Part shown: positions 1,257 through 34,300 of the stretch, piece after piece
Numbering within the stretch: the first letter of the stretch is position 1
How the letters are laid out: every line of letters begins with the position of its first letter
Translations under genes and position numbers: made by a program
The notes under the pieces: generated by a model
What the model saw: only the letters and a program-made list of their open reading frames with translations
Databases searched by the model: none
Told to the model about the DNA's origin: nothing
Assembly: GCA_036172245.1 (NCBI GenBank)
Contig: JAYWIR010000003.1
Location: 2,604,001-2,668,000, forward strand
Reading direction: 5' to 3'
Source: Raillietiella orientalis
Lineage: Eukaryota
DNA length: 64,000 nucleotides

Positions 1257-4200
1257 CTAAAAAAACTCTTTCTATTATAGCATCTCTTTTGATATACCCT
1301 CGGCAGTTTCTAGACAAATTTGAAAGATTGAATCGGGAAGAGGCAATCCCATTGGTTTCATAGATAGGAGCAACGACGTGATGTTGCTTTTTCTATTGAT
1401 TCTCTGTGAAAGATGACAGTGCCTTTCGTAATGCCCCTTTTGCTTCATGGAGCACCACACACAGCCTCTGCTCATCATTTATATAGTAATCAATAACCTA
1501 ATTACATTTCATGCACGTGTGCAAAAGATGCATCTCTTGAAATGGCTAGCAAGCAACAAACATCAAACACAAACACCGAACGGAAGCATCAGCTAAGGAA
1601 AACTAATTAAAGTATTGTCAAATCTACAAAAAAACAAGCAAAAAAACGAGCTTTTAAACGGGAGCCAACTTGCTGCTCTTTCTTGGGTTGCAAGTTGGAA
1701 GACAATAGAGGATGCAGGACATGATCAGATTCTGTTTACCAAAAATGAACAAAGCCGGTAAACATTGAAAAAGAAACAACGAAAATAAAAATAGCCAACA
1801 AACAATAGGAGAAAACTTTCATTAGGTCATACCTGGGACACCCCCATTAAACCAGAACCCAAGGGTTGGCATCTTTGTTGGTATATCATGTGCTTGCATA
1901 TCTGAAAAAACAGGGACTTCATGACTACATCCTTGGCTACCTAGATTCCCATCATTTTATACAAAAGAATGTTTCGGAATCCAGGCGAAAGTTAGTTTGC
2001 CTAACATTTTACTACGTATTCAATCAGGGATGTGAGCATAGCGGATCGCTCTTTAATTTCTGGCATTAAGGAGGAAGCGGGACTGTTCTTCGGGATAGCA
2101 TTTGGACCGAGCCTCTGCTTAATCTCTCTAAGGTCTATCCCGTGTGTGGCGTGTGGCATTCCGAGGAGGAACGGATCGTAGGGAACGCAGAAACAGTGAG
2201 GAAAGGTTCTTGCTTTTTTCAAGGGAACAGCCTTCCACGATTTGCCCAGGAATGGACACTGGTCTCGCGAAGTGTGCTGAAAACCAAAAAAAAAAAAAAA
2301 AAAAAAGGAAAACAGATCGCGCGCCAGAAGAAAAAAAAAAAAAAAAAGGAAAGAAGGGAATGCACAGAATTGCAGCTCTTTCCTAGGCTCGGGACGTGGT
2401 TTGCCACGCTCCATTAAGGAGGATAGGCTTTCCTGCAGTGCCGACTGAGGCGGTTTTGGCACCAAGTCATATTCTTCGCCGTGGTCAGGAGGAGTCAGCT
2501 CGACGGTGCGCTTGATTGCTGGCAGCATCGTTCGCCTTTGCAAAGCTTCCGGGAGCTCTGAAGCGCGATGCTGCACGGGGATTGCGCGACCGTGGGCCCG
2601 CGTTGAGGATTCGGGAAGGACTGCACGCAGAAGTGCTGCTCCTGTTCTCTTTCGGCGTAATTTATAATTGGTTTCTTCCACAGTGAGAACTTGTCAGCGT
2701 GATCAGAAAACAAAGTGCTTGTAAATCAGGAGCGAGGCAAAAGGTTTATACCTTTCGTTTCCTCCTCCTCCTTCCTACCACCAACTCCATCTCATTACCT
2801 CCGAGCATGAACACTCGTGGAAAGCCACTGCAGAGGGTTTGTTTTTTTTTTTTGTTTTTTTTTTTTTTTTTAATCACAGGAAAACGTGTAACACGATAAT
2901 ACTCAGTCTGGCAGGTAATACAGATCGCTGCAGAGTCGGGGAAACGGTACATTATAATGGAGAACTGTCGATACGACCGTATGCTTCGTATTAATGGATG
3001 GCACAACTCTAGTGGAAAATGAAATTTTCCTCTTCCTTGGAAGCCTCGGTCGCAAGCGTGCAAATTAAACACCTGGACCGTCGAGGAAGCGAACGAGAGG
3101 CACGGATGTGAGCTGCAGCTATCCAGTCGTGTCGAAATGGAATCGTATGTGTGCAATTTCACCTGGCGATAAATAAGTCCAGTTGCTTTAATTAGTGACT
3201 TGCTCTCCTTGTTTTGACACGAATTACGTTCGGCGCTGCACACACGCTGCACGGCACCCGAAGAAGAAGACATGCAGAATTCGGATCTTGCTGCTCGATA
3301 TCGGGCGCCTACAAGAGCTCATTGCTATTAAGTCATTCCATTACTGGACTTCACATATTGAGTATATGGTCTTCGGTCCCGTATGAAAAGAGAGTGCACG
3401 AGCTGGTTATGAGTTCTAAATGAGTTAGCGATTACCATTTCTTGGCTCACGTGAGTGCCCAGAACTCTGCAAATAAATCAGTCACATAAGATCGCCCCCT
3501 GAACTTATTCTTTCGATGTTCGTTCGCTTTCGAGTAAGAAGGACAAAAACAAAAAAAAAAAACATAGTGGGCAGTCTTTGAAACGCTCCTCATTCTTTAT
3601 TCGGATCTCGTTCAAACCGTTCCGTTCCCCAGATTGAGACATTCGACCAGCGACTCCTCTGGTCAGCTTCCATTTCAGTTCTCATCTTTCCGTTCACGGC
3701 GTGCAATGGAACACCGCCCAATCCACTTCAAGGTGATTTTCAGTAAAGGTTTGTTTTTCCTAGACATGGAACACCGCCCCGTAGGAGGCATGTACTTGCT
3801 CCTCATCCCCACAATCTTTTTCTAAGAAGATTCGAAGTGCTCGCCACGATCAGGTCCTGGCTGCTGATCAGTTTCGCCGCTCATTGCGATGATTCACACT
3901 TCGCTGCACAATAGCAACATGGCCGATTCTGATTCTTCAGCGATTGAATCGATTAAGAGGGATGTGGAAAAAATATTCGATTCCTCCGGGTTTGTGCATT
4001 GCACGCAGCAAAAAGAAATCTCTTAGTGTAGTCAGGTCAGAGTTTTCGAAACTCGAAAATTCCAGGAATCTTCTTCGAGGATCTGCTCGTGTTCTTCCGG
4101 TTCTCACTTCTCCTCGATAGCATCAACACTTCCTTCGCCGGCCTTGCAATCTCGGAAGATTGCCAGCGAGCTTTCTGATCACCCACCCGTGCGTGAACTC

Positions 4201-4501
4201 GGAAAGGGTGGATGATGAACACGAAAATTCACTCCAAGCGATCACCTTCCCCCGTTTCTCCATCGTGTGGTTCATCTGGGATGTCCGGTCTCCTCGACCT
4301 CTTTGAGACGGGCGGAGCGAAGCGTACACGCGGCTCCGGAACAGTTTTGTTCGTCGAGCGCTATCGATTCCGGGAGTTTAGAAAAAACTTTCCTTTTTCC
4401 TTTCTTTTTTTTATTTCGAGGACGATACTGGTTAGTTCGATGTCTTCGTCCCGGGAGTGATTTTTTTACTCTGCGGGGGCTGAAGGGGGCTCGTGAGCTT
4501 C

Positions 4502-4531
4502 GAACTGACTTCGTCGGAACGAAGTCAGTTC
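4502..4531. repeat. Perfect 13-bp stem / 4-nt loop inverted repeat in the Ubx intron
   Basis: GAACTGACTTCGT-CGGA-ACGAAGTCAGTTC. Confidence 0.9.
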
Positions 4532-7210
4532 CGTCCGGAAGTAACGAGAAGCAAGTGCTGCATGTCACTTCCTTTCTCGCCTGCCGAATCCTCTTGCCCG
4601 AATGACGATCCAGCCACTCATTTATTGAGCATCGCATATGCAGGAGATGACGGTGTGATTCCTTCCCATCCGAGAGAGCGCTCCCGCGGCTGAACGGAGA
4701 CTCAAAGACCTTTGAGCCGCCAACGCCCCGACCTCTACCGGCAGCAAGAGAAAACGTTTTAGGTTCCTGCTCGGATGCTAGATGCGAGAGGGAAGTTCCG
4801 CCAGCCCTGGGTACAGACACTAGGTAGCTGCAGCAGGAAATAATCTGCAATCTCTCCAGCTATTCTCGAAAGATGCAGCAGTGGAACGATAGCCAGTGTT
4901 GCGGCCTAGTCGGAATATGGTTTCCCCCCTCGAAACTACGAATACATGCATTAGATGAGGTCTCCCAGCATCCCGGCACGAGAATTTATTGACGATCTGT
5001 CGACACGTCTCTTATTGCAAAATCATTACTGCCGGAATTTTCAATCTCCGGGTCTGCTACCGGCTTGCAGAACTGCCCTCAACACTTTCGTTCCGGACAT
5101 CGTCTTGGGGAGCGAAAACAACGTATCGGTGTTGATATGTTGTAGTCGATCCCCACATGGGTTTTCCTGCGTGGGGTTGTGAGGTTCGACTTGTGCTCAC
5201 TCTAGCCAAATGCTCAGCCGCAGTGCCTTCTTCCTCCATGACTTTGAAAGGCACTTTCCGGAATTATTACTTTTATTTATCCCGCGCGTTCTTCTATTTG
5301 TCGAAGATCCAGTCGGAAAGTACTGCTTTTCATTCTTCCTCCGAAGACTAATTATTCATTGGTTTATTTTTACGGGATGCGTCTTCAGAATTCCTGAAAT
5401 TACAAAGTGCTGACTCAGGCATCTTAATGAGTTCCAGTTTCTTAAGCCTTTCCTCAGATCATTTGAAAGTTTCGTCGTTTTCTTTGCCAGCTCAATGAGA
5501 ATTTCACTCAGTTCCGAGATGATTTCCAATTTCCTTTATTCATGAATCTTAGAGCTTTGAGAATAATCCCTAAACGTCAAGCAATTTACACGGTAATGAA
5601 TTACGGTTTGTCCTCAGGTATTTTCTCCAACTCTAACGCCAATGGATGCATTAATGGCCGCTGATTCCAAAGTGCTTTCTAAGCTTCCCATCAACTGCTT
5701 TGCTCCACCTGAATCAGCCTCCACAAAGATGCCTCGACGCATTGGCCGTAGTGATCGCAGAAGCGATCGTGTGTGCCGCACGGGGTTTCCCTTGCACGAC
5801 GTTGGGGGCCCTGAGGAACCGCGTGTGGACAAAACGACCGGTCAGCTGCAACCGAGAGTTGTCTACCCTTAAAAGCTTCCAGGTGAAGTCGCTGAATACG
5901 TCATTTGTGGGAAGTGCAAAGCGAGAAAACTGCATGCAGCGCAACTGGCGGAACCGACATTCTCGTATGTCTCCACACGATTTCTTACAGCTTTTTTTTT
6001 TTCTTTTTTTCTCCAAATCAAGTCAGTCATGAAAATAGATCGTTAATGAACGAACAGTGCTATAGAGTGCTTAGAAAAAATAGGTGGCAATGCACATCGA
6101 CAAGTAACAACTGCTGCAATTTTTTTTTTGTCCGTTCTGTGTTCTTCACATCGGTCCCTCTAAAACTGGCAATCCACTTTAGTGTGCACTTGGGCAAATG
6201 TGATCAAGAGAGAGAGAGAAAAAAAAAAAAAAAAAAAATGGCCGAGTCCCCCCTGCGATTCTACAAATGGAACCAAACAAAAGCGGAAGAGCTCTCCCAC
6301 AACGAATGCTGAAAGGAGTATGTGCGGAACGCATCTGAATAAATCCGAATGCAATCAAGCAATTATTCTTAATTTGGACCAGTTCACAGTCCGGTCCTCA
6401 AGAGCGAAGCGAAGATGGATTCTGTTTTACCCACGGTGGTGGTTGTTATGGTGACATCGGCTCGTTGATGATGAGATGTAAGTGATGTGAAACTCGGATA
6501 AATCGAGGAAAGGTTGTACGATGGGTTCCTGTACATAAGGTCATTGATGAAATGTCATGAAGGCACTGCACAAGAGCGAGAGAGGGAAAAGGGAGGGGGG
6601 AGGGAGAAATAAATGCGGTTGGGAATTTGCAAGCGTTGGAGCACAGATATCTCTATAAGCGAATGCTTTCTCCGTTGAAGCAGCTACGGGAAATGGTCTT
6701 TTGATCCTCGCATGCAGAGAATCTGCAGCTAAATTCACCTACAGTATGACAAGATCGGAATGAATTCCTGATGGTGAATGGATACGTTTAAAATATGTTG
6801 TGCACAAGAAGAGCATTTAAGAGCTGAAAATATCTTATCGGAGTGTACCAAAAAGGAGAAATTCAGAGGAGAGTGGACAGCGCTTTATGATATAGGAGGG
6901 ATGGGTTACTTGTGAGGAACAAGCAAAAGAAAATATGACTGTTTGGTGTTTGGCCATTGCTTTTCGTACAAGAAAAAATGGCGATTTCATGTATGAACGA
7001 ACTTTTATTGCTATTCATTCTGACGATTTATAAGGGTGGTTTGAATGCTGGACATGTTTTTCAGAAAGATGAGGCTTTCTAGACTTCTGGATTTTTTAGA
7101 GACCTTCGCTAACAAAACAGATCCATAGAACAACGTTTATAACTTGATATTCTTTGTCACTGAATGAAAATTTTTCTTCAATTCGCAGTCTTCAGTTGAC
7201 GGAATTCATT

Positions 7211-19200: not shown

Positions 19201-22200
19201 TTCTTGTGACAGGGCTTGCATCTGGTCGGGTGGTAGCGCTGCTCGGAAGGAAAGAGGAAGGGGGGGGGGGGGATTTGCGCAGGAAGAGAGGTTCCTGCCG
19301 AAAAGGGGAGTGTTTCTCTCTTCGAGCTGCAATCCTGCAGCTTGCGTGATCCCATGACGGTGGTTCTGAGTATGGAGTGTAAATCATCATCAACCAGGAT
19401 CAGACTCAGGCCCAGGCATTTTCAATCCATTGCCTTGGGGGTAATGGCTCCAGCACCTAAAAGTTGGCTCGCTTTCACAGAACAACTGCCGAAGAGGATG
19501 CGAGTTTTCCTGTGGGGCTCGGAGTCGAAAAAGAGATACACAAACAAAAGATCAAAACGCTAACGGCAGCAGCGGATGCTTCCTTTCAAGCGACACAGAG
19601 GGAAGGACAATGTGTTGTTCTTGAAAGCCACTTCCTAGAGAGATAAACGTTTCGCAGAGAGCAACTATTGCAAATGAGATCAGCAAGCATGCGGAAGGAT
19701 GTCTCATCAGCTCTGGAAGGGAATAAATCACGAGAGCATCTCATTTTTTTTTTTTCTTCTTCTTCTTCCTCTTCTTCTTCTCCTTCTAGACACACACACA
19801 CACACAAAAAAAAAAAGGAAAAAAAAATCGCTAAGGGGCTCCGCGGAGAGATTACAATCTTGCAAGCCCTGTGGTTCTTTGTTTTGATTCTTGCACCAAG
19901 AACCGCGGTAAATGGAAGCACCCAGCCTCTCCCAAGGAGCATCTGCTAATTCCCCAATTTGCAAGCACTCATCCTCGAAAATTCGAAAGGATTCTCCTGC
20001 ACGAAGATGCAATCTGCTCCTGACTTTGCAATTCATATTTCCTGAAATTCACAGTTGCGCTCCAGAGGCAGGAGCCGCGCGCTGCGAGGGATCACTCGCG
20101 AGAATTGCGGCAAGTCGTCTGCATCTCGCACCGGGAACGCTGGATGCGAGGGACCGAGGAACCAATGCCTTTTGTTTCCCCTTTCACGCGGCGCAGAAGA
20201 TACATTCGGGAGGCAGCAGCAGCATCCATTGTGGAAGAGCGTGCGGTCCCCCGCCGAGCGTACGGAAACACCACGGAATCTTATCAATCGCGAGTTGATG
20301 CTCGGCATCACGGGAAACGGCCGCGTTGCCATGACAAATTTGCAAATAAACTCTCTTTGTTTCCCAGTTGCCTTCTCCGAAACGGGATGGATCCTTCGAG
20401 CGCCATCAAGGTGAATGGACTGGTAAAAATAGGTTCGGGGGGGAAGACGTGCGGTTTCGATTTCGACGGTGGGGGGAGGGAGGGGGTGAAGGGCTTGGAC
20501 AGGTGGCTGCGCCACGGCCCTTGAAGCGAGCTCCAGCAGCATCTCGCACCCGGCTCGCCTGTCGGCACCTCCGGCACAGGAACGCGATCTGCGCGCGCTC
20601 ATGGAGACCCGGAAATCCCCGAAGGAATCCTCGGCCGGGGACTTCACGTGCAACGCGCCCGCGTTGCCGTGGGCGACGGCCGGGAGATCTCCCCTCTCCC
20701 AACGGATCCCTCAGAATTCGGGAGAACGGAGCGAACAGGCAGCTGTCGATTCCCTCCCCCCTGCCCGCCCGGCTTTTCAGCCACGCTACCACTCGAGATC
20801 CACGTGGTCACGACACCGCCCCGCTACTCCCCGTTCCGAGCATTGTCACAGTGTCCCGAGTTTCCCCCTCAGTCCTCCTCCCCCGTTTGCATCTTTCGAT
20901 GCTCGCCACCGCGACTCCCGCCAGCGTGGCTGAATCGGTGCACTCGCGCTCGGCACTGCGTTCCTGGAAGCGCGCGGGAACAGGAAGAAGACCCGAACGA
21001 CCCCGGCTTTCACCGCACGAAGAACCCGATTCACCGGTTCGGCGGAGGGGGACGCGCAACGCCCCACCACCCTTGACCTCGGAGCTCGGGAGGGGACGCC
21101 CCGCTGCCGAACCCTCGTCCTCCCCTCAGGAAGGGGCAATTCGCCCCCGCGGCTTTCCTCGGCAAGGCCGCGCGCGAGCGCCTCCTCCAGGCGGGCCCGC
21201 CCGACCTCGCCCGCTGAACCCGTGCGCGGAGCGTCCTCCCACGCGAGCTGCATGAATGGGAAAGGGGAGGAGGGGGGGAGTTGCGGAGGCAGGAGGCGGA
21301 GGACGACTCCAGGAAACCCTTCTGCGCACTTGAAAATCCCGCCCGCAATCACTTCCGGCTTTTCCTCTTGGATCCCGGGAGCTTTCGGTGGGAAGAGAAG
21401 CGGAGAGGCGCGAACTCGGCTTGCCGGAGGTGACCTTCCCCTTCCCCCTTCCTTGGAGGAGGAGGCTGACTGACACGATCGAAAGACCAGGGATGTGTCG
21501 TCGAGGAAGGTCGTCGGCGTTTCCGCCCGGAAGGCTGCCGCGCTCTTTCTCGGAGGAGCAAGAAGATGAAGAAAGGATCCTTCCTTTTTGCGGGACGTCC
21601 GTTGCCACGGAAGCGATGTGTATATTTTTATCTTTTGCTCGCTGTTTGCGACTCAACCTCCTTCCCGAGGGAGAGTCCTCGAGCACCGCGCCCTGGGGCC
21701 GCGAAGAAGCGGCAGTGATTTCAAGGTCGCAGCGCTTGGCATGACCTGCACGGGCGCAACCGCGAACAGCGGAGAGGTCGGCCGACAGGAGGCGCTCGTG
21801 CTGGGGTACTGAGAGGCGGCGCGCGATCCCGGTCTCCCGCCGGAGGCTCCTGGTCTCCACGGGAACCTCCCTGGAGTCAGCAGGTTGTCGGGTCCCGAGC
21901 GAGCGTGACCCGACACGTCACGGATGGCAGCGGCTCCCGCGTTTCCGAGCAACGGCAACGGCGGCAGGTGCGAAGCGGCAGATTGATGGCTGCTCAGGCT
22001 GCAGGCACGGAGCTGCGAAGGGTGCGCGTCGCGTGGGGCCAGTGGACGCGTTCCTCTTCCTCGAGGAGGAGGAGCCAGGGATGCTGGGGTCACTGCACCT
22101 GGAGAGCCGGTCCCTCGACCCCAGAGGCCCGCTCTTCACCCTCCTGCGAGCGCGCGGCCGGCGGCGGCGTTAGCAGACCCTCCATCCCCTTCCTTTCCCC

Positions 22201-22708
22201 ACGGTAACCGTCTGCGCGCCCCTGCCGCAAGGTGCCGCCACTTCCTCCATCAAGGGTGGGCGCACGCCGCAGTCGAGTATCTCGGGCGACGGTGCGGCAA
22301 GGAAGGAGCGTGGTCGCCAGCCTCCGTCGCTTCCACCTTCACCGAGATCGGGGGGATGCCTTCCCTTTCGCCTCCGTCCGAGCGGATACGCTAAGGCGGA
22401 AGGAGGTGGAGGAAGAAGGGAGGAGGTACTTCCCGGAGAATGGGGGGCTTTTCCGTGGTTTCGTCTTCCTGCCCTTGGGCGAGGCGTGGGCGGTGGTCCC
22501 GCCGCGAACGGAAGTCCCCGCCCCCTCCTTCTCACACACGGTTACCCGCTCCCCCCTGTAGGAAGGAAGGGAGCCAGAATGCAAAGAAAGAAAAGAGGCG
22601 GAAAGGAAGCCTCTCCAGATGTCGCCATGAGGAGGAGAGGGGGAGAGCTGCCCGCTGTCCCGTGAACTTCCCGACGGACGCTGCACGGGGCGCGCTCGCT
22701 CTCGGCGT

Positions 22709-22783
22709 GAATAAATAGCCAAATAAATAGACGGGCAGACATAGATAAATGCATAAATAAATAAATGAATGAATAAATAATGG
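22709..22783. promoter_or_regulatory. AT-rich island with 7x ATAAAT (ATTTAT) plus TAATGG; candidate homeodomain-site cluster
   Basis: ATAAAT occurs at 22711, 22723, 22745, 22753, 22757, 22761 and 22773, and TAATGG at 22778, inside otherwise very GC-rich DNA. Confidence 0.35.
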
Positions 22784-24838
22784 ATGCCGGAACCGGCGCT
22801 TTCCTTTTCGGCATTTCAGCTGCTTCCTGGGAGATGGAGAGGCGTGATTTCACCGCGAGCGCGCGCGAGCACGACGCGGAGGCTCGCGACCTGGCCGCTA
22901 GGGGCGCGCTGTTCTCTCGGCGGCGCTTCCCGCGCCCGCGCCTGCCCAGCCAGCCTGCGAGCGGGCAGCGGCACGAAGAAACCGCCCTCTCCCCCTCTCC
23001 ATTCCTCCCCCCCCCCTCCCCTTCCGTTCCCCCTGCTTCCCGGAAACGGTTCCTCCGATCGATCCCGGCGCTCGGAGTCTCTCCTGGCCACCCCAGGCGT
23101 CCGGGAGGCAGGGAGGAAGGAGAAGCCGTTCCGCGGAAGGGGCAGGCGCCCCCTGGCGACAGAGCGACCTCCCGCTCGCGAGTTGCGCGTGACCAGTGCG
23201 CGTGCGCGCGCGCATGCGCCGGGGGGGACCCGCGGAGGGTCCTTCGCCGAGATCGGTCGAAGCGCGCCTGCGTGGCGGCCGCGCGCCCGGCGGATCGATG
23301 CGGAAGAGAGGAGAATGGGAGAGGCGCGCTCCCGCCGACGACGCTGCGGGCAAGCAAGGAGCGAGGAGGGGAGCGGCGACGGCGCGCACCCCTGGACCGG
23401 ACGCGCGCGCGCCCTACGGTCCCGCCTCCTCCCTGAAGTACGTGCGCGCGCGGATGCTCATGCCGGTCCGAGGAGATGGCGATGGCGTTGGCACGCTCAC
23501 GCAGGTGGAGCGGAGGAAAAACGTCCCGGGGGGGTGGGGTGACGGAGGTGCTGCCGCCGCCGTCGCGCGGGAGGACTGGAAAGCGGGCGCGCACGCACGC
23601 CCGCACGCACGCATGCACGCACGAGCAAGCGAGCGAGCGGGAGGGCTGAGAAGGAGAAGGGGGAGGGGGAAGCCGGCAAGAAGAGTCACAAAAAAAAAAA
23701 AATAAAGAAAACTAAAGAAAAAGGAAGGGGAGGGGGAGGAGGAAGAGGAGGAAGAGAAGGTGGAAAGAGGGAATGCGTGAGCTCGCACGCACGCATACGC
23801 TCGCGTGTGCGCGCGCGAGCGCGCCTTTCCCCGCGCTCTCCCGGCAGCTGCAGGGCGAGCAGCCTGCAGACTCTTCCACCGGTCCACGGGAGCGAGGAGG
23901 CGTGGGAGGGAAGAAGGGGGCCAGCACGCACGCGATGCCCCCCCCCCCTCCCCTCCCTCTACTTCCCATCGCAGATGGGGTTCCTCGCAGCGGCGGCTCC
24001 AAGACTCGGCGGAACGCTTGCAGGCGCGCCTGCGCCGTGCCACCACCACCCCGGCGAGGCGTCTCCTGGGCAACAAGAAGGAGGGGGAGGGAGACAATGG
24101 GGGAAGGAGGGGGGGGGGGGGGAAGTACGCGGTCGGTTTTTCCCGTGAACGCTGCTGCCCTGCCGACCACGTGGGCGACGCTGCCGGAGCGCCGCGGGCC
24201 TGCCGGGGCAAACGAGGCGCACCTCAGTCTCCCCCCTTCAAGCCCTACTTACAGGCTCCCCTGGTCGCCGTGTGGGAGCCTCAGGGCTTGCGCGGCCCGG
24301 TGGGAGTTCGCGCGTGGCAAACACTCCGCAGCGGCGAGGATGGCCGACGGCCACCACCCTTGGCCACCCTGCCTCTCTCTCGGCCATCCGACCGGGGTCA
24401 CCAAGGAAGCGGCGTGCGGTCGTTCGGGGGCGGAGGACGGAGTGGGAAGACGGCCTCCCGGGGCGCGGAGGGACAGCCGTCCCCTCAAGCCCCACCCGCG
24501 TCCCTTCCGTGCGCGCCGCTCGCGTCTCCCCGCGGCCGCACCGCGAACGCCGCCGTCCGCCGCCGGCGGAGGCGCTGCGTGCGGCGGTCCTCGCGCGCCG
24601 CCCGAGTGGGAACCGAGCCGAGAAGGATGAGGGGGGGGGGGCGGGGAGGGAGGGAGGGAGGGGCAGGGGTGCGACCCTTGTCGCGCCTGCCGCCCTTCCC
24701 CTCCTCCTCGCGGGTTGGCGCGGGCGGTCCCTCGTGAGCGTGCACGAGCTCACGGAGGCGACGGCAGCGGCCCGCGCGCGCGAGCAAGGGGCGCGCGTAG
24801 GGGGCGCGCGTAGCGGGAGATCGAGAGCCAAAGGTGCG

Positions 24839-24847
24839 TCCTACCTG
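24839..24847 (-). promoter_or_regulatory. 5' splice donor of the Ubx first coding exon (CAG|GTAGGA)
   Basis: The GT follows ...ATC GCA G directly. Ubx similarity ends here and the read-through peptide (RTHLWLS...) is not Ubx-like. Confidence 0.85.
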
Positions 24848-25454
24848 CGATGGCCATCCAGGGGTAGAAGGTGTGGTTGGCGGGCTGCTGCACCTGGGTC
24901 TGGGCCGCCGCGGCCGCGCTGTTGAGGGAGCACGTGTTCCAGGCTGCCCCGCCGACCGCCCGGGGGCTGGTGCTCAGCGAGTCACAGTAGGGCCGCGTGA
25001 GGTCTGGGGTGCAGACGGAGGGCCGCACGGGCCACGGCGGGCAGCCCACGTCCTTGGCGGCGGCGGCGGCGGCGGCGCCCGCACCGGCGCCGGCGCCCAC
25101 GGAGGGCACGCTGAATCCGTTCTGATCCTTGCCGGACCCCCCGGACAGGCAGTCCACTTTGTAGGCCGCCGCCGCGTGGGCGTGGTGGGCGTCGGCGGCG
25201 GCCGCGGCTGCGGCTGCGGCTGCGGCGGCGGCTGCGGCGGCGGCCGTGCTCGTGGTGCCCACGGCGGGGTACAGCTTGCAGGAGGGGGCCACGTTGGGCG
25301 AGTCGTAGGGCGCGTCCTGGGGCGGGCGGCCCTGGTGCTGGGCGTAGGGCGACACGCTGAGGCTCAGGGGGAAGCGGTAGGGCTGTTCGGCCGCCGCCGC
25401 GGTGGCTCCCTGGGGCCCGTAGAAGCCGGCGGTCTGCTCGAAGTAGGTGTTCAT
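24845..25454 (-). CDS. Ubx: Ultrabithorax (Hox7-class homeodomain transcription factor), first coding exon (203 codons + 1 nt); homeobox exon not found in the window
   Basis: Lies within ORF 24750..25493(-), with ATG at 25454. The translation carries the Ubx blocks MN(T/S)YFEQ-GFYG, EQPYRFPL, SCKLY, YKVDC, KDQNG, PVRPSVCTPD and WNTCSL, plus the Ubx hexapeptide context NHTFYPWMAIAG. It is followed at once by GCAG|GTAGGA, a phase-1 donor at the usual Ubx intron position. Confidence 0.94.
24855..24869 (-). other. Ubx: Hexapeptide (FYPWM) Exd/Pbx-interaction motif of Ubx
   Basis: Minus-strand codons TTC TAC CCC TGG ATG; an established Hox cofactor-binding motif. Confidence 0.93.
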
Positions 25455-25535
25455 AGCGACGACGGCTTCACTCGATGCACCGGCTGCAGACACCTCACTC
25501 GCAATGGCTCCGCGACAATCGCGCGGTATGCGGAG

Positions 25536-26270
25536 GAAAAAAAAAACACTTTTTTTTTTTTTTTTTTTTTTTTTTTTCTTCTTCTTCTTCTTCTTCTCTC
25601 CTTCTTCTTCTTCTTCTTCTCCTTCTCCTCTCCTCCTCCTCCTCCTCCTTTTTTTTTTTTTTCCGCCTCTTCTCTCTCTCCTCTCTCTCTCTCCTTGCTC
25701 TTCTCCTCCTCCTCTCTCTCCCTCTCTCCTCCTCTCCTTCCTCCTTGTTTTTTTTTTTGTTGTTGTTCGCCTCTCTCCCTCTCCTCTTCTTCCCTTCTTC
25801 TCTTTCCTCCCTTCCTCCTCCTCCTCCTCTTCCTTTCCTCCTCCTCCTCCTCCTGCCTCTCGCTCCTTACTTCGTCGTCGTAGCCGTCGTCGCCGTCGTC
25901 ACTCTTCCTTTTTGTGGGCTTTTTTTTTTTTTTTTTTTTGGCTCTTCTTCTCTCTCGTGCTGTCTCCCTCTCTCTCCCTCTCTCTCTCTCCTTCTCTCTC
26001 TGTTTCGTTTTCTCCTTCTCTTCCTTTCCTTTCTTTTTTTTTTTCTCGTTTTCTCCTCCTCCTTCTCCTCTGTGTACGTGTTTTTTTTTTTTTTGGCTTT
26101 GTTTTGTTGTTGTTTTTTTCCTCTTCTTCTTCTTCTTCTTCTTCTTCTTCTTCTTCTTCTTCTCCTCCTCCTCCTCCTCCTCCTCCTCCTCCTCCTCCTC
26201 CTCCTCTCTCCCTCTCTCTTTTTTTTGCTCGGATCTTCCTCCTCCTTCCCGCTTGCACCTCCTCTCCTTT
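25536..26270 (-). repeat. Compound low-complexity purine-rich tract (poly-A, (GAA)n, (GGA)n, (GA)n on the Ubx sense strand) just upstream of the ATG; probable 5' UTR or proximal promoter
   Basis: The + strand is mostly T/C for ~700 nt (T runs, (TTC)n, (TCC)n, (CT)n). Confidence 0.9.
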
Positions 26271-26368
26271 CTCGCCCGGCACGTCGAGGATGCGAATGGC
26301 ACAAGCCCGATCGCCACGGAACTGCCGTCTCCAGCGGCTCTGGCAAGCACCTCCTGTCCGCACGCTCC

Positions 26369-26411
26369 GGCCAATGGGGAAGTCCGACGTCATCCAGAAA
26401 CCGTGACGTAA
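26369..26411. promoter_or_regulatory. CCAAT box and two CRE-like (TGACGT) motifs at the upstream edge of the purine tract; possible Ubx proximal promoter elements
   Basis: GGCCAATG at 26369, GACGTCA at 26386 and TGACGTAA at 26404. Confidence 0.25.
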
Positions 26412-29400
26412 GCTCGCTCAGATGTGGTCGTCCGCCAAGGCATGTAGTTACTCCAGGCAGCTCCCGCAAGCGCCTCCAGCAGCAACGTCCCCACCATCTC
26501 GCGACCGCTCGGCGAACCGGAGGGACGAATGCGCGCCGTAGGACTCGGGAGAAGTCAGTCGTTTCTCCCGTTCAGGATCGCGACCTTACTCTCTCGCCCA
26601 GCATCAAATAGGGGAGGAGGGGCTGGAAGGGGGCGAAGAGCGTGCCGATGCACTCGGTTCTGCCCTGGCGTGGCTCGCTGCCGTGGATCCCAGCCACGCG
26701 AGATGATGGAAGATGCATCCTCGAGACTTCGCGCAGAGCCTCCCTCACCCTCCCACTAGCATCGCAGCAGAGGGATATGCTCGTTGTAGTTGCCTCCCTC
26801 GGACGCCCGAACCCATGGACCTCGGGTCGTCTCACTGGGCCGGACCAGATGCATCCACGCTCTTCATTCCCCAATAGAGCACCCAGGTCACGGGGCTCCC
26901 GGATACCGATCGCCATCCTCCCCCCCTCCCCCCTACGTCTCGTCCACTGGAGCGCCCCGCTCGAGAAGTTCTGCCGATCCCACGAGGGAACCTGGATTCC
27001 TGCTGTCATCCGTGCGGAGTCTTCGAAGCACATTGTTTCCCCAGGCTTGACCTCGCCAGTCAGGCTTCAGGTCTCAGAGCCCAGGACGCGACGGTCTCTC
27101 AGGTGCTCTTGGTGGAGAGCTCTGGCCTCGACAATGGCCGAGGGGTAGTACGCAATTTCCGCCGGCCCCCGTAATTTGTGACCACGGAGACCTCGGAAAT
27201 CGATGTCTGCAGGGCGCCGCTCCCGCACCGCCCTTGGTGATGCAGACTCCTTCCACTTCGATGGCTGCTAGCGGAGAGCCCGGGATCCTCTGAAGAGGAT
27301 ACCCACGAAGAGGTCGCTGCAGTTTCCGATTGCGTCTGATGCGCAAGCGATCGTTTCCGAAGAGACGGAGGATCGGCATGTCGGCTGGATCTCTTCCGTG
27401 TAGGACGCGTCACGCATTTCGCAGCTACCTGTGAAGAGGAGGCAAGGAGAGGATCCGTGGTCAACCCAAGAGGATAAAAGGCCAAAGTCAAGAGAGGATT
27501 CTCGTTCAAGCAGCAGCAGATCGAAAAAGTCGGAGAGGGAGGAGAGGACTGCGTCCTGTGCCGCTGGCTAACGTCAGCAGCAGTGCTGCCCGCAGTATGG
27601 CAGCCTTGACGCCGTGCTGACTTCACACACCCATATCCAAACTTGAGAGCTGCGTCTTTGCTGGCAGAGCCATCTCTTGTCAGCGCGGGTTCGCCCCTGC
27701 GACCCGAGGAGGCGAAACCAAAAGGTGGTGCTGGTGGGCAGCTGAGGCTATGGAACCCTCACACGGAACTCGGAAGAACCTGAAAGTGATCCCCAGAAGT
27801 GTTACTGCCCAGTGGAGATCCGTTTTCCAGCTTTCACCTGCTGCTCTTGAAACAAGATCTTCCGCTGACTTTGGCCGTGGACCCTTTTAGGTGACCAAGG
27901 ATCTTCTTCGCGTATCTTCTTCGCAGGTATCTGGGCTAGCATCCCTGAAATTGTAACTGTGGGAATATTCCGATTGTAAATTCACGGAGGAAATTGCGAG
28001 AGTTTTGAGTAGAGGAAGGGTAGAATTCTTTTGGTACTTTGTTGCAGCAAGGAAGAAGAAACGCAATCGATTCCCGTCTTTAGGTATTGCCGTTCTTCTT
28101 TTAGTCGCCTTCGTTGCCTGGAAAATCATCATTCGAATGGTTCGCATTGAGCTCGTTGCTTCCCTCTCTCCGACGCATCTCTTTTTCACACGGGATGCGA
28201 CAGGGGCGAAAACCAGAATTCGCAGGGACCGCCTCGACGTCCATAAGATTCAAGGCACAGCCTCTTCTTGCTGAGTTCAGGGATGTCCGCTTCTGGAACA
28301 AGTCCACAGAGGTCCATTTGAGAAAGCGCTCTAAACCGTAAGCTCTTCCGGCTCCTCGAACCTGTGCACTGCATCTCTCGCTTAGCTGGTTGCTCGGGTC
28401 AGCATCAATCCAGACTGACTAGCTCCCACAGGAGACCTTTCGTTCTTTCTATCCCAGATCTGCAAGGTTCGTGGAAACCGAGCTCAGAATAACGAAATAC
28501 TACGAAGTGGACGTGCACGTCGTGAGCCAACTGCCCGTGTAGTTGGGTCAAGGGAGGATAGGCTTGGATCACGTGCGGCTAAGGGCGGGTCAGTTGAGAA
28601 AATCCGAGTCCAGCAGGACGGAGTACTCCTTTTCCGAGACGGCTGACAAAGAGCAGCCTTCACATCGCCCTTCGCAATTCCTTCTACTTCCCAACATTCT
28701 AAAAAGGAAGCAACCCATCCACAAAAGCGAAAGTCGGGAACACGGTTAATCGAACAGAAGTGGCTGTAGTGGATGACCTCCTCAACTCGCATTCCCCGGC
28801 TTGAGCAGGGGACCACAAGAGTCCATCTGCTGATGCAAATGCTGCAGTGTGAAGAGCGCCTTTGTACACGCTCCTTGTACTTTGACTCTGAAAGCCTCGA
28901 CCTGGCCGCTCTCCTGAAACAAACGGCTACGAAGAGGCAACTGTCCTTGTCTTTCCTCTCACGTGGAGCAAGTGGCGTGTTCGCCTGCGTTCCAAAAAGG
29001 GACAGGCGGTCACCAATCATGCAGCATCTTTCGCATGTGAGCATTCCCGAAGAGAAACCGGTAGACATTTATTTATTTTTTCAAACATTTAGCGGTCTTC
29101 CAGATCTGGACGAGTGAATCCCTCTGCTCGAAGATTGAACAGCTGCTCACTGTCTGATTAAGAGCCACTAAAGAGCACAGTCACTTAGCACTTTGGATGC
29201 TTAGCGCCTGCAGTCAAAAAGATCCTGGAGTCTGATCAAGAATCGTTGCGTAGACGTATGCGTTTTCAAGAGAAACTCCCGAGATTCATTGATCAGAGTG
29301 CACAACACTTTCCGTTGCTGCTGGTCTTTTCTGGGTCAGGCGGGGAGTGAGAGGGCACGAATCTTATCAAATCCTGAGCTTTCCGAGCGTGTTCTTTTAG

Positions 29401-30604
29401 CTCACGTCTGAGCGCTCGATTTGTTGTGATGCGCTTTCGCCGAGGCATTGCTTTTACTTTTAAGGTGCCAACCAGCCGCGCGCGCGGGCGCAAAAAGGGG
29501 GGGGGGGGGGGAAAAAAAAAGCATGAAACCCCCTCGCAGCAAACGCGTACTTATCGGACAGATAAGTACGCGTGTATACACTTCTGGCCAAAACGTTGAG
29601 CTCGGCGCCTTAAATGTTCATTTATCTCGAAATGAATGGGGGAGGGCATTCTGTTGCATCTTTTCTTGCCCGTACGCAGGCTGTTGAGGCACACTTGGAG
29701 GCAGGGCGGTTTTCGGTGCTCGAGTTGTGATCAGATTTTTGCTCATTGCTACATGGTAACTTATTGTCTCACGACGTCCCATCGAAACATATTCATCTGC
29801 TACGGGATACGCTTGCAAAACCATCCGTTTTCCTGCGACGCCGGAAGACTTGAAAGTAACCATGCGCGCGTGCTGCCACATGTCATGCTTAGAGGAAAGG
29901 CTTTCCCAACTTTCGGAATGACAGGGATGCTGTGAAGATTTTCTCTAAGGTTTGCTCCTGTGTCTGAGCTCATGAGGCATCAAGCAACTACCGTGTGCCG
30001 AGTTCCGTCTGTTTCCTTTGTATTCAAAACTGGATCATTGGGCGGATCAAAGGATTTGCCCGGTTCCGTGGCAAGGCGGAAATACGTGGAAAGAAAATGA
30101 GGGGGTACTCAGAAGTCTTGATGACACAATTTCTCCCGTCGAAACTGAATGCACACCGTTAGGGAGTCATCATGACTTGGAAATGCATCCGAAGTGTGTT
30201 GCACAAAGATGAATCCATTGCTTCATTTTTTTTTTTGGCGACTTCTCTTTCGAATTAACATCACCCCTTTCGAAGGTGATCGAGTACCTTGTCGTCATCT
30301 AAACAGAAGCAGCAGATAGATAGAACTGCAGCTTCAAGGATGGACAAAGAATGACAGCAGTTACATGAGTGTCGGATAAGGGAAAATCGAGGAAAGAATT
30401 TTATGGCTTGCACTAATTTCCAGTTGCAAGAACGCCACTTAAGAGTAATTTTCCATGCTATTGGAGGGGCTCATGGTGCGATTCCCATCAGGCTAAGCAT
30501 GCCTTGCAAAGGGAGAGCAGGGAGGAGTAAATAAGCAATCGAGCACATTCCCTAATTCATCCTTCTTTCTCTGTTTCGTAGCATGCTGCACATTGTGGTT
30601 CCAC

Positions 30605-31243
30605 TTCATGATAGGGGGCACCCCGGGATGGAGGGGTCCGCCATATGAATCCAGGAAGGGCTCGGAGTCCGTTCCTCTCACGCTTGGGGAAGGATCCCCC
30701 CCGGACGGGGGGGATCGCACCTCCCACCCTGGTTGCCTCCGAAGGGGAACCCCGAAGGGAATCTCCTTCCTCATTCTCTCCAGAGGGACACCCACCGTAA
30801 TGGACGGTGGTCCTCTCCATTTCAACTTCTCCGAAGGAAACCCGGAAAGGATCCACTTGTAGGAATTTCTTCTCCGGAGGGAACCCGCAAGGGAACCGCT
30901 CCTGTTCACTCCTCTGAAGAGAACCCCGAAGAGACGCTTCCGAAACTCAGAAGGGGCGCTGCAGCTTCCCGCAGGGAATCGCTCTCGCTTGCCTCCTTTG
31001 TGCACACTCTGTGAAGAGGCGCCGACGACTCGGAGGGACCCCCCTGTCGGGGGGTCCGCTCCTTTGAACAGCTGGAGAGGTGCCCGTGAGGGCTCCTGCT
31101 CCATCTTGAAACCGGAGGCTGTCCCCCGGTGACGGGGGTCCACTCTCCTTTGAACACCGGAGGAGGAACTCCCCACTCCTTGATTCCTGGGAGGACCCGA
31201 AGGTCGACTCCCATTGTTCCGGCCTTCGTCGGGAGGCCGCCGG
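30605..31243 (+). repeat. Tandem array of ~15 sequence-diverged, structure-conserved GC-rich hairpins
   Basis: Example units: 30693-30716 GATC7-GGAC-G7ATC; 30741-30769 GAAGGGGA..CCC-GAA-GGG..TCTCCTTC; 30876-30902 GGAG-GG..CCC-GCAA-GGG..CC-g-CTCC; 31032-31062 GGAG-GGACCCCCC-TGTC-GGGGGGTCC-g-CTCC; 31074-31102 GGAG-AGG-t-GCCC-GTGA-GGGC-t-CCT-g-CTCC; 31189-31212 GGGAG-GACC-CGAA-GGTC-ga-CTCCC. The linker CTCCTTTGAACA occurs twice. Confidence 0.8.
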
Positions 31244-31348
31244 TTTTATCCACCGCCGGGGCCACGCCCGAATGACTCGGCCAACCAGCGCCGTTGCAGG
31301 AGAAACTCGGAACCCAAACGACGCAATGGCGTCAAGTTATCTGCCGAA

Positions 31349-31395
31349 GTATTCGAACCCGCGACGCATGGCCTCATTGCGGTTCCACTTCATTC
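31349..31395 (-). mobile_element. Possible degenerate tRNA-derived (SINE-like) Pol III head
   Basis: Minus-strand GTCGCGGGTTCGAATAC resembles a tRNA T-arm/B-box (GGTTCGANNCC, one mismatch). Only a partial A-box (AAGTGG) lies upstream and no cloverleaf is evident. Confidence 0.25.
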
Positions 31396-34300
31396 TGAAG
31401 CACTTCAAGAATTGAAAAGATCCAAGGGCTATAGTAGGTAAAAATGAAGTAGGCACCTGACTAGGTGCAGCGGACCTTCACTAGGTTTTGATGAATTCGA
31501 AACTCTTATCAGCTGAGTCAAAAGGCTGGGTCCAGTTCAAAAGAAGGCACTAAGAAGGCATCTGATGGGAGAGAGGAGGGGAGGGATAACTGAAAATAAG
31601 AATTCCCACAAACGGTGACATATGCAGCGTTTCAAATGCAGATATCGAAACCATTTTTGGAGAAATTTTTCCACGGCGTCCCGTGCTCTCTAGAAAGCAG
31701 GAAAGGATCACAAGAAACGATCGTATCATAAGAAAACAACGCACTGGAGTCTCTTCTCGGATAGTCTGAAAGTGGCTATTCCGAAAATTTCATCATTTAT
31801 CTTGTGTTTTGCATTAGGTCGGCCCCTCTCCTTAGTATTTTCAGCCATCCTTGGCACGTGGGTGAGCTTTAGTCGTTCTGTGCAGAACAGAGTTTCGGCA
31901 AATTAGGTGGGAAGAGATGGCATACGGTCCATTCCTCCTGCGCTGCGGATCTCCAGTTTGCCGTTCCTTACAGAATCACGAAACGCTCACTCTCCGGATA
32001 AGTTTCCCAAAAAGGCTCCCCGAATCCGAGAGCATCATGATTCCTCTGCAGCATGCCTCTCGTGATCTTCCTACTCCGCACCTCCAACTCTCACAGTCGC
32101 ACAGTTGCAGCGACAGAAACGGCTTACTGGCCAGTTTGAACAACAGCAGAAGTGGGAAGACGGCACACCAATTGCTCACGTAGATGAACCCGCAGTTCAG
32201 TTTCTGAACTCATCGCAACGATTTCAAATTATCAGCAGGCGGCGTTTCCATGTGATTTTTAAAGGAGGAAAGCGGGCGCATGCATGCGTTTCCGAACGCT
32301 GCCAGCGATTCTCCATTCTCCCTCAACCGCATATTTTGAGACAGCGTTTGTATGGAGTACGGAACTTTCCAGTGAACATCCAGTGATCCTCGTCCGCTTG
32401 AATTTTGTTCATACCGGAGAAACCCTTTGAGTCCTCGATGAAAAGCAACGGGTAGAAGAAGCAGTCTCCAGAAAGCGGCGCGGCAATAACACAAATGAGA
32501 ATGCAGGAAAGAGGAAATTTACTTCTCTTTTGTATGAATCCATGCCTCACTACGAAATATGCATGGAAAATCGGGGAAAGAACTTTTTGGAGATTGTCCC
32601 TTAGCATGGCCGAAGGCGTGCCAACAAGATGAAAACACCGGAGTGCAGGTAAGACGTTGGATGCTGCTAAGAGCACGTAGCACGTATTAATGTAAAGAGC
32701 CAGAAGAAAATGAGCGAAGCAGAGTAGATGGGGTCCATGCAAGTTCTAAAAAACATCAATGAGAGAATTTTTGACTCGCACATCTGCAGCGATTCCTCCA
32801 ATGGTTCCAGCTCACCCTTATTTCGGTAATCAAATGGCATGCACCGCTACGAATGTGCAAGAGACGAAGTAGGGGAACCATCTTCCGCTTTGACATGGAT
32901 CTCTGTTACGATGAGGATCCCACATTTGGGTAACCAGTGAATCCAGCATTCAAAGTCGAAACCTCATATCCTCTCGAATCAATGGTTGAGTGCGAGATTG
33001 CTTCGGGGCTATCGTAGCAATTCTTCGGCTAATCGAAATTCGAGGAACACTTACTTTGAAATTTGCAGTCCACTAACTCGATCTGCGCAAGCCGGACGGA
33101 GAAAAACCGGACGTAAGGTAGGAAAGATCCTTGTCATGGAGACTGATTCTCCCACTGGCGCAGAAGGTGTATTCCCGAGGTTTTCTTCCTAGAGCTGACC
33201 GAAGGTACCAAAGCACATCGCAGTCACAAGTCGACTTCTGCCGAGAGAAGAGTCGAAAGGAAGGAGAAATTTAGCGGATCAAGGGGGTCTCAAACGTTCC
33301 CCTGGTGTCTTCCAGCAGGAAGTTTTTTTCATCAGGGAAATTCTTTCCACTTCCAGATCACTACCCAGAGCGTTGCATATCCTAATCTGAGATTCATCCT
33401 AATCTGTCACGCCATTCTTCACTGCATCCCTGACTAGAATCGGTCGGTCCGATGCTCTCATGAAAGTTTCGTTTCTGTTGGAGTGGTGCAGGCCGGGAGA
33501 TCTCTCTTGCATTCGCACTATAACCCGTACGGAATCCGAGTCCTCCATCATCGTGATCAACGGAAATGTGAAAATCTGTGACCGGGATGAATGAAACTTC
33601 ACCGCAGAGCTGAAGAAGAAGATCAGTCCGTAAAGCAGATCGCCTTTAATTCGGAGATCCGAGAAACTGCCCAAGAAGTGCTCACGTGCTTTATAGCCAA
33701 TCGTAAAAATTCGGTAAAGTTCCCCCTCCTCCCTTTTTCTGAGCGGGAGAAGTGTATTCATCGTGACTTCGAATGACCATGTGTTTTACTAGTGGGAAAA
33801 GTGCTGGGCGCTTGCTAAACTGTTTCGATGCCAATCTTTCGCCCTGCACCCGAAGCGGACGATCTCGACGTACTGACCAAGAGAGCGGATTCCCTTCGCC
33901 TTTTCTGGTAACGTCTTGAAAGCAAGGACGACTGGCAGTTTGGAAGAGCTGCAGGATCGAGGGTGGATTCATGCTGCATGTGGGGTCGGCTTGGGAGCAG
34001 AGGGAGTATCGCTACGTGCAGATTTCTCTTTGACTGAGAGCTCTCTCCCTGACCATTCCATGCAGCGCACCTCTTTCCCGACGGGCACAAGACCGCAAGG
34101 TGGAGAGGCAAGGCTTCTTCGTAGCGGCCACATCAGCTTCGCTTTCGTTTCTCCAGAAGGAATTCTTGCAAGATGGACAGCCATTGGTAGTCAAAACTGA
34201 TTTGCGATGCCTTACTTTTCTAGCAAAATCCGTGGATTTTCAATGGACACATTTCGGGAGGCGAAACTAACGCGGGCAATAGAGTGATGGTTTGGTTTCT

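Follow-up and report, generated by a model that had tools for sequence, protein, structure and literature searches.

The window analysed here, a single stretch of 64,000 nt of DNA, contains on its minus strand an open reading frame (24843-25454) that begins with MNTYFEQ, ends with the hexapeptide motif and spans the coding portion of Ubx exon 1 between its start codon and that motif. This frame has 59 relatives, the best named ones being insect Ultrabithorax proteins with approximately 40% identity, and the gene is the Ubx of an arthropod with poor database sampling. A first-pass annotation had pointed to an array of about 15 hairpins at 30605-31243, some 5 kb upstream of Ubx, and had proposed that it forms a structured long non-coding RNA (lncRNA) or single-stranded DNA module of the Ubx region kept by selection. 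The placement was correct, as a distance of 5151 nt separates 30605 from the Ubx start codon (25454, minus strand), and the existence of the array was confirmed, with about 16 units counted.

Dividing the stretch 30611-31243 yielded 16 hairpin units of 26-58 nt each. In this array, for which the minus strand is the proposed sense, each unit has an apical stem-loop, GC-rich and variable, between its purine-rich 5′ arm and its pyrimidine-rich 3′ arm, plus a T-rich linker. The basal stem pairs GGAG/CTCC (30876, 31032, 31074, 31114 and 31159), GAAG/CTTC (30741 and 30916) and GGAA/TTCC (30654) were found where they had been described, and the bulged G residues at 30671, 30898, 31058 and 31098 were seen in the local folds. 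The loops GCAA and GTGA, the latter three times, were recovered as well, together with the T-rich linkers, including TTTGAACA, which occurs twice.

The strongest perfect hairpin, with a 10-bp stem and a 4-nt loop, lies at 30693-30716 (-21.6 kcal/mol on the plus strand) and is also present among the listed inverted pairs. A hairpin with a 7-bp unit-specific apical stem is located at 30792-30810 (-10.3 kcal/mol on the plus and -9.8 on the minus strand). Unit 7 (30876-30902; -13.8 kcal/mol plus, -14.9 minus) combines the GGAG/CTCC base with a GCAA loop on the plus strand and the bulged G at 30898, and unit 11 (31032-31062; -27.5 plus, -28.4 minus) forms 13 bp around the bulged G at 31058. GTGA loops on the plus strand close the hairpins of unit 12 (31070-31106, bulged G at 31098; -21.1 plus, -19.2 minus) and unit 13 (31114-31148; -20.5 kcal/mol). 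On the minus strand, the loop of the unit 15 hairpin (31188-31213; -13.2 plus, -14.1 minus) reads as a C(UUCG)G tetraloop. Outside the array, a hairpin of 16 bp with four G-U pairs at 31251-31293 reaches -23.9 kcal/mol on the minus strand and is far stronger there; the segment 31251-31295 yields -24.4 kcal/mol on the minus versus -12.7 on the plus strand.

The units are strongly diverged from each other. The mean column identity in their alignment is 34%, and the best direct-repeat families are 63-82% alike with spacings of approximately 40 and 85 nt. An approximately 85-nt higher-order repeat comprises units 11 and 12 on the one hand and units 13 and 14 on the other, with spacings of 84-86 nt in the three respective direct-repeat families. 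In the interval 29000-33000, Tandem Repeats Finder at a minimum score of 30 reported no array, its output being limited to a G15 run and a 7-mer. A satellite or minisatellite with head-to-tail copies detectable by this program was rejected, since the program is blind to the array and the units are only 63-82% alike. A covariance model of the unit gave 30 hits in the 64-kb window, 12 of them inside the block described below; the best hit outside scored 14.9 bits (E 0.81), and no further unit copies above noise were found outside the block in the window.

The array is part of a longer block of 765 bp (30610-31374, proposed sense minus) that is delimited by its GC profile, by a flanking repeat and by a second copy. 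Within the block the GC content is 0.57-0.63 versus 0.41-0.45 alongside, and the element as a whole has about 60% GC in a neighbourhood of 41-49%. It is bordered by a 19-nt direct repeat resembling a target-site duplication (TSD), CATTG[T/C]GGTTCCACTTCAT, with the left copy at 30591-30609 and the right copy at 31375-31393 matching at 18 of 19 positions. In the 64-kb window, 95 direct repeats of at least 18/19 identity exist at spacings of 300-2000; 94 of these are simple sequence according to a filter of our own, and the pair flanking the block is the sole remainder. The six nucleotides ATGAAG at 30604-30609 are also common to the second copy and may be the 3′ end of the element or priming microhomology. 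The length of the flanking repeat is given as 13-19 nt. Target-primed reverse transcription by a LINE enzyme generates duplications of 13-19 nt without inverted ends. According to PMC6007223, LINE-moved SINEs leave TSDs and, in RTE-related SINEs, the first TSD base correlates with the repeats at the 3′ end of the element. Among the 15 inverted pairs listed there is no terminal inverted repeat. A DNA transposon or MITE was ruled out, because no listed inverted pair joins the ends of the block and the repeat has a length of 13-19 nt.

A 955-nt contig from another public run, here X1, carries the same block. Its identity to 30604-31371 is 90-95%, the differences being 43 other letters and 25 gap letters. 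Past the common part, it goes on for 146 nt at one end and 28 nt at the other, both unlike the window; these loose ends are absent from the whole window at up to three mismatches. X1 is the one public run with words in common with the region; it contains 0.07 of the sampled words, and the flanks of the window were found in none of the listed runs. Hence, the same block is also present in a different genomic context, with limits that coincide with the flanking repeat. Searches by blastn gave no extra copies in the 64-kb window, so that dispersal is represented by one other copy with different flanks and none further in the window. A 20-mer from the region of the B-box-like motif (see below) matched two loci in a metagenome scan, with only 20-23 nt in common and no tRNA, at least one of them in a bacterial-looking context; three actinobacterial loci with only 21 nt in common were found among prokaryotic genome contigs, and there were no matches in the viral contig collection scanned. 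These matches of 20-23 nt in metagenomes and prokaryotes are due to chance.

Taken together, the block is very probably a mobile-element insertion upstream of Ubx. The first-pass annotation had mentioned, as a fallback, that the array could be the structured end of a mobile element not yet recognised, and had named dispersed copies with TSDs as the observation leading to a transposon. The TSD-like repeat and the copy with different flanks support that fallback, and, with one further copy known, the observations on dispersal appear to point in the same direction.

The folding of the array exceeds what is expected by chance. With a maximum pairing distance of 50 nt, the plus strand folded with -264.0 kcal/mol, compared to -220.9 +/- 10.2 in dinucleotide shuffles, and the minus strand with -270.5 versus -225.4 +/- 11.6. 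Hence, the check by shuffling proposed in the earlier annotation came out in favour of structure, as on either strand none of 200 dinucleotide shuffles folded locally as well as the real sequence (z about -4). Three flanking control stretches of the same length gave z values of -1.98 to +0.90. The mean length of purine or pyrimidine runs is 3.1 in the array versus 2.2 in a flank, and shuffles that preserve the order of purines and pyrimidines averaged -235.7 kcal/mol on the plus and -243.1 on the minus strand, with none of 150 reaching the real value. The composition of alternating purine and pyrimidine runs accounts for about a third of the folding excess.

Pairing is also specific to the individual units. 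Cognate arms fold with a mean of -15.5 kcal/mol versus -11.6 for chimeric hairpins in which the 3′ halves were swapped between units, a value matched by none of 2000 permutations; a clear preference for the own partner arm is seen in only about 6-7 of the 16 units. RNAalifold predicted no consensus pairs on a MAFFT alignment of all 16 units because these are too diverged for unguided alignment. Covariation was then assessed on an unfitted MAFFT alignment of eight of the 16 units, chosen as the best-formed ones, with the structure taken from one of them: 76.9% of the cells pair (shuffles: 71.7%, with 8 of 500 as high), six pairs have changes on both sides (9 of 500 shuffles), and the covariation score is 0.217 versus 0.149 (3 of 500). 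If the partners are slid by 1-3 columns in this alignment, pairing drops to 42-60%. Of the compensatory changes between units that had been claimed, the covariation is real; it is modest only, and part of the shape results from composition.

The plus strand had been suggested as the folding strand on the basis of non-Watson-Crick pairs, which does not hold, as, of 213 pairs per strand, those of the G-U type number 16 on the plus and 21 on the minus strand. Summed over the hairpins, the energy amounts to -280.2 kcal/mol (plus) versus -288.0 (minus). Energy favours neither strand, local folding being equally good on both. A preference for the minus strand in global folds (RNA z -1.90 plus versus -6.24 minus; DNA -2.22 versus -3.28; 20 shuffles each) was dropped because it was gone under local folding with 200 shuffles. 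With regard to the loops, the plus strand has four of the GNRA type (GCAA once, GTGA three times), and CTTCGG occurs six times on the minus strand of the element versus not at all on the plus strand, three of the six being judged to close good stems.

The second copy permits a comparison of structures within the family. The input for folding was a rebuild of the X1 copy from the listed differences, which is approximate, with four insertions or deletions missing, and which reached -314.7 kcal/mol on the plus and -335.7 on the minus strand. The window copy yielded -297.2 and -312.8 kcal/mol in the same comparison. In 100 versions of the window copy with an equal number of random changes, the means were -275.8 (plus) and -291.6 (minus), and none matched X1. 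The differences between the copies are non-random with respect to pairing. Among 18 hairpin segments, eight are better in X1, four are better in the window copy and six are within 0.5 kcal/mol, including three identical ones. The differences are clustered, for example at 30794-30805 and 31045-31048, and the largest divergence, with 13 letters, affects the unit at 30781-30819, of which both versions fold. The hairpins of the common ancestor were presumably better than those in either copy, and the copy at Ubx would have lost more. As the X1 copy folds better than the Ubx copy, the hairpins are ancestral to the family and decaying at Ubx. The better fold of X1 also fits a younger subfamily instead of decay at Ubx.

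Pairing is a property of the family and not of the Ubx locus. Our best guess is that the hairpins either make the RNA body stable and resistant to nucleases or serve the proteins of a partner element as a multivalent platform. Loops that stabilise RNA are frequent and cognate arms covary, and one reading of this is selection on the RNA of the element. Alternatively, the pairing may stem from a process at the DNA level without selection on RNA, namely from a quasi-palindromic minisatellite in which template switching between arms during replication (quasi-palindrome correction), along with the purine/pyrimidine composition, generates and renews the pairing. We regard this explanation as tentative and rather unlikely; it concerns the origin of the hairpins and is compatible with an insertion. 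It would account for the part of the excess recovered by purine/pyrimidine-preserving shuffles (-235.7 versus -220.9 in dinucleotide shuffles and -264.0 in the real sequence, about a third), for chimeric arms that still fold (mean -11.6 kcal/mol) and for equal folding on both strands, as symmetry at the DNA level predicts. However, the enrichment of RNA-stabilising loops, GNRA on the plus and C(UUCG)G on the minus strand, is not predicted by a purely DNA-level process. The clustered differences to X1 (30794-30805, 31045-31048) would be the footprint of template switching. Two copies do not reveal which way a given change went. Template switching is reported in PMC8794818 to create and maintain RNA hairpins.

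Concerning the class of the element, we favour a non-autonomous retroposon of which 30610-31374 is one copy, in minus sense and thus in the same direction as Ubx; a tRNA-derived SINE is the most likely type. The B box is the T-arm box of the Pol III promoter of tRNA genes. A motif at 31349-31359 on the minus strand, which we take to be B-box-like according to the consensus, is situated 16 nt from the high-coordinate end of the block; the pattern has no other match on the two strands of the window, compared to a mean of 0.20 matches for this 11-mer in shuffles of the whole window. In the 28-nt extension of X1, read on the minus strand, there are letters that presumably correspond to a D-loop, approximately 36 nt upstream of the T-loop box if tRNA numbering is assumed. 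The B-box-like motif and the tRNA-like letters of X1 suggest a tRNA-derived SINE that is 5′-truncated and in minus sense, and we put the chance that the block is such a truncated copy at even or slightly above. An A box is absent from the Ubx copy, and the D-loop-like letters are present solely in the 28-nt loose end of X1; the A-box-like letters, known from this loose end of one contig, could be the flank of that copy. Weaker hints for the minus sense are the hairpin at 31251-31293, the T4 runs in the element (none on the minus, one on the plus strand) and the microhomology at 30604-30609.

According to this interpretation, Pol III would transcribe a master RNA of the family, starting from a promoter within the element, and the reverse transcriptase of a partner LINE would copy this RNA into nicked DNA, primed by a short microhomology of a few bases at the RNA 3′ end (ATGAAG, 30604-30609). 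The Ubx copy would be 5′-truncated inside a tRNA-like head with loss of the A box, and without an A box it could not be transcribed on its own. The body of the family would consist of about 16 diverged tandem copies of an approximately 40-nt stem-loop unit. At Ubx, the array would be a passenger slowly losing pairs and not kept by selection on Ubx regulation.

No tRNA gene was detected by ARAGORN in the window, which rules out a tRNA gene as the identity of the block, and there was no Rfam tRNA hit at E values up to 10. With at least 765 bp, the element is long for a SINE, these being short with about 100-600 bp. We identified no poly(A), A-rich, microsatellite, simple-repeat or LINE-like tail at its minus-strand 3′ end and no partner LINE in the 64-kb window. 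Of six open frames, five had no Pfam match at E values up to 1 and the sixth matched DUF7552 with E 0.081 and 13.6 bits (cut-off 27). Two minus-strand frames had no relatives in a set of 5.8 billion proteins, nor had one frame in a representative set of 1.84 billion, and no other copies of the element came to light by way of predicted proteins. The spacings between units (39-92 nt) do not fall on multiples of three. A coding repeat was rejected on account of the non-triplet spacings, the lack of Pfam matches above cut-off and of protein relatives. Nothing in the whole window reached an Rfam gathering score, and among five weak hits in 29500-32500 the best was SNORD53-like with 24.1 bits versus a gathering score of 46; a known RNA family was rejected for lack of a match at gathering score. 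In the literature searched, as distinct from the catalogues Repbase, Dfam and SINEbase, no SINE or LINE carrying a comparable array of hairpins was found. The block belongs to a known kind, the LINE-dependent retroposons, and its hairpin-array body is unusual.

The commonest LINE insertions are 5′-truncated copies with TSDs. It is conceivable, and in our view unlikely, that the insertion is real and the element represents the 3′ untranslated end of a 5′-truncated LINE or of another retroposon, with the hairpin array as a repeat of the LINE 3′ UTR and the B-box-like motif as a chance match. An origin of this kind, the commonest among LINE insertions, would fit the unusual length for a SINE, the failure to call a tRNA and the end of the X1 contig 28 nt past the common part, as assemblies do in repeats. 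Against it, no reverse-transcriptase or other coding remnant is present in any frame, the B-box-like 11-mer occurs just once in 64 kb and lies inside the block near one end, and the D-loop-like letters in the extension of X1 are found at tRNA-like spacing.

A more far-reaching version of the retroposon interpretation, which we consider improbable, is that the approximately 630-nt RNA body of an undescribed arthropod retroposon is a selected ‘beads-on-a-string’ array, in which about 16 tetraloop-capped GC hairpins act as a multivalent scaffold or decoy. As part of this same improbable version, the targets would be the proteins of the partner LINE or a host RNA-binding protein. If true, non-coding transcripts from upstream of Ubx would include the copy located there, which could then bind these proteins as well.

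In Drosophila, the regions upstream of Ubx make non-coding RNAs. Together with the position of the block 5.15 kb upstream of Ubx, with hairpins that are real and with cognate arms that covary, this would be consistent with an array that acts at Ubx as a scaffold, in the form of a structured non-coding RNA or of single-stranded DNA, either born there or as an element co-opted later by the host, which is compatible with an origin by insertion; nevertheless, such a role is very unlikely given the TSD, the second copy elsewhere, the unit being found nowhere else in 64 kb, the lack of a significant bxd-family match and a fold worse than that of X1, with eight of 18 hairpin segments weaker at Ubx versus four stronger. 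The proposal of a module of the Ubx region kept by selection is not supported in view of the 765-bp insertion, the TSD-like 18/19 repeat, the second copy elsewhere and the worse fold; the block is not single-copy at Ubx, and the worse fold of the Ubx copy compared to the X1 copy is contrary to what selection for structure at this locus predicts. A platform for the GAGA factor was likewise dropped, GAGAG/CTCTC occurring at six sites in 765 bp, i.e. 7.8 per kb versus 4.4 per kb in the window.

These results point to a retroposon insertion that is ordinary except for its body, an unusual array of hairpins. For Hox regulation, a tempting candidate is removed: the array is imported and decaying sequence and hence gives no evidence for a conserved regulatory RNA. 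With regard to mobile elements, the family is probably an uncatalogued arthropod retroposon with 16 diverged stem-loop units, the pairing of which was kept in the ancestor of the family. More generally, paralogous ‘covariation’ within a repeat is no proof of selection at the locus of the copy.

The block shares its position upstream of Ubx with the Drosophila bithoraxoid (bxd) regions (Rfam RF01930 and relatives), but the sole match to these families, bxd_2, scored 15.3 bits versus a gathering score of 80 (E 2.8) and is noise. The Xist A-repeat consists of tandem GC-rich stem-loops and U-rich linkers, a plausible layout for multivalent protein binding, and has in common with the array the tandem GC-rich stem-loop units split by U/T-rich linkers. 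However, the A-repeat is locus-specific, belongs to one conserved lncRNA and has near-identical short cores, whereas the units of the hairpin block are diverged (34% mean column identity) and lie within a copy of a mobile element. Hairpins from quasi-palindromes and template switching, as described in PMC8794818, are similar in that the arms stay complementary as the sequence changes and that mutations are clustered; they differ as the result of a mutational mechanism and not of an element family, the likeness resting on the clustering of the X1 differences.

Closer parallels exist to tRNA-derived SINEs, of which, according to PMC8010984, only 23 of 234 catalogued SINEs were from insects. As in these, the block is non-coding, has a TSD of variable, LINE-like length and a B-box-like motif near the presumed 5′ end, is present as a second copy in another context and is possibly 5′-truncated. 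It differs in its length of at least 765 bp, most of which is the array of about 16 units, in the missing A box of the Ubx copy, and in that neither a recognisable 3′ tail nor a partner LINE was found. A further comparison is possible to the stem-loops at the 3′ ends of LINEs and SINEs. In the eel elements UnaL2 and UnaSINE1, a 3′-end stem-loop is recognised by the reverse transcriptase of the partner. These elements and the block have in common a structured RNA in a retroposon without a poly(A) tail. Single terminal stem-loops are found there, in contrast to about 16 hairpins over approximately 630 nt in the block, and, by analogy, recognition by a partner as in UnaL2/UnaSINE1 is a possible reason why the family may have kept its hairpins.

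The inserted element, a proposed retroposon copy upstream of Ubx that carries the hairpin array (30610-31374), has a CpG observed/expected ratio of 0.80, compared with 0.90 in 5 kb of its flanks, so that CpG depletion is hardly visible and there is little sign of it in the element. The 40 listed substitutions between this copy and the matching contig from the public run X1 are divided into half transitions and half transversions, a share of transversions which, judged from the two aligned copies, is unusually high for neutral decay.

About 1.1 kb from the insertion lies a G15 homopolymer (29497-29511). Perfect short hairpins reach 28 per kb at positions 1-1000 and 11 per kb at 4000-5000, while most other 1-kb bins of the window contain 0-9 per kb; these two hairpin-dense bins probably represent simple or palindromic repeats. 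A further peak, with 22 perfect short hairpins per kb, coincides with a tract of simple sequence of the purine/pyrimidine type, about 1 kb long, directly upstream of the Ubx start codon (about 25460-26400). This stretch is made up of GAA/GAG-type repeats on the minus strand, its translation yields long poly-K/E/R or poly-F/S/L runs, and the AT skew of the 24-26 kb bin is -0.354.

Ubx exon 1 itself (24843-25454, minus strand) encodes a poly-alanine run of 18 residues together with several others that are shorter. The closest database relatives of its product are only 40-44% identical, and the source lineage therefore seems to be poorly represented in the database. The exon is enclosed by a GC-rich block of 7.7 kb (20000-27700; 0.58-0.68 GC in 2-kb bins), within which all six readings have open frames. 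This block resembles a promoter and 5′ region of the CpG-island-like kind, an arrangement that is unusual for many insects.
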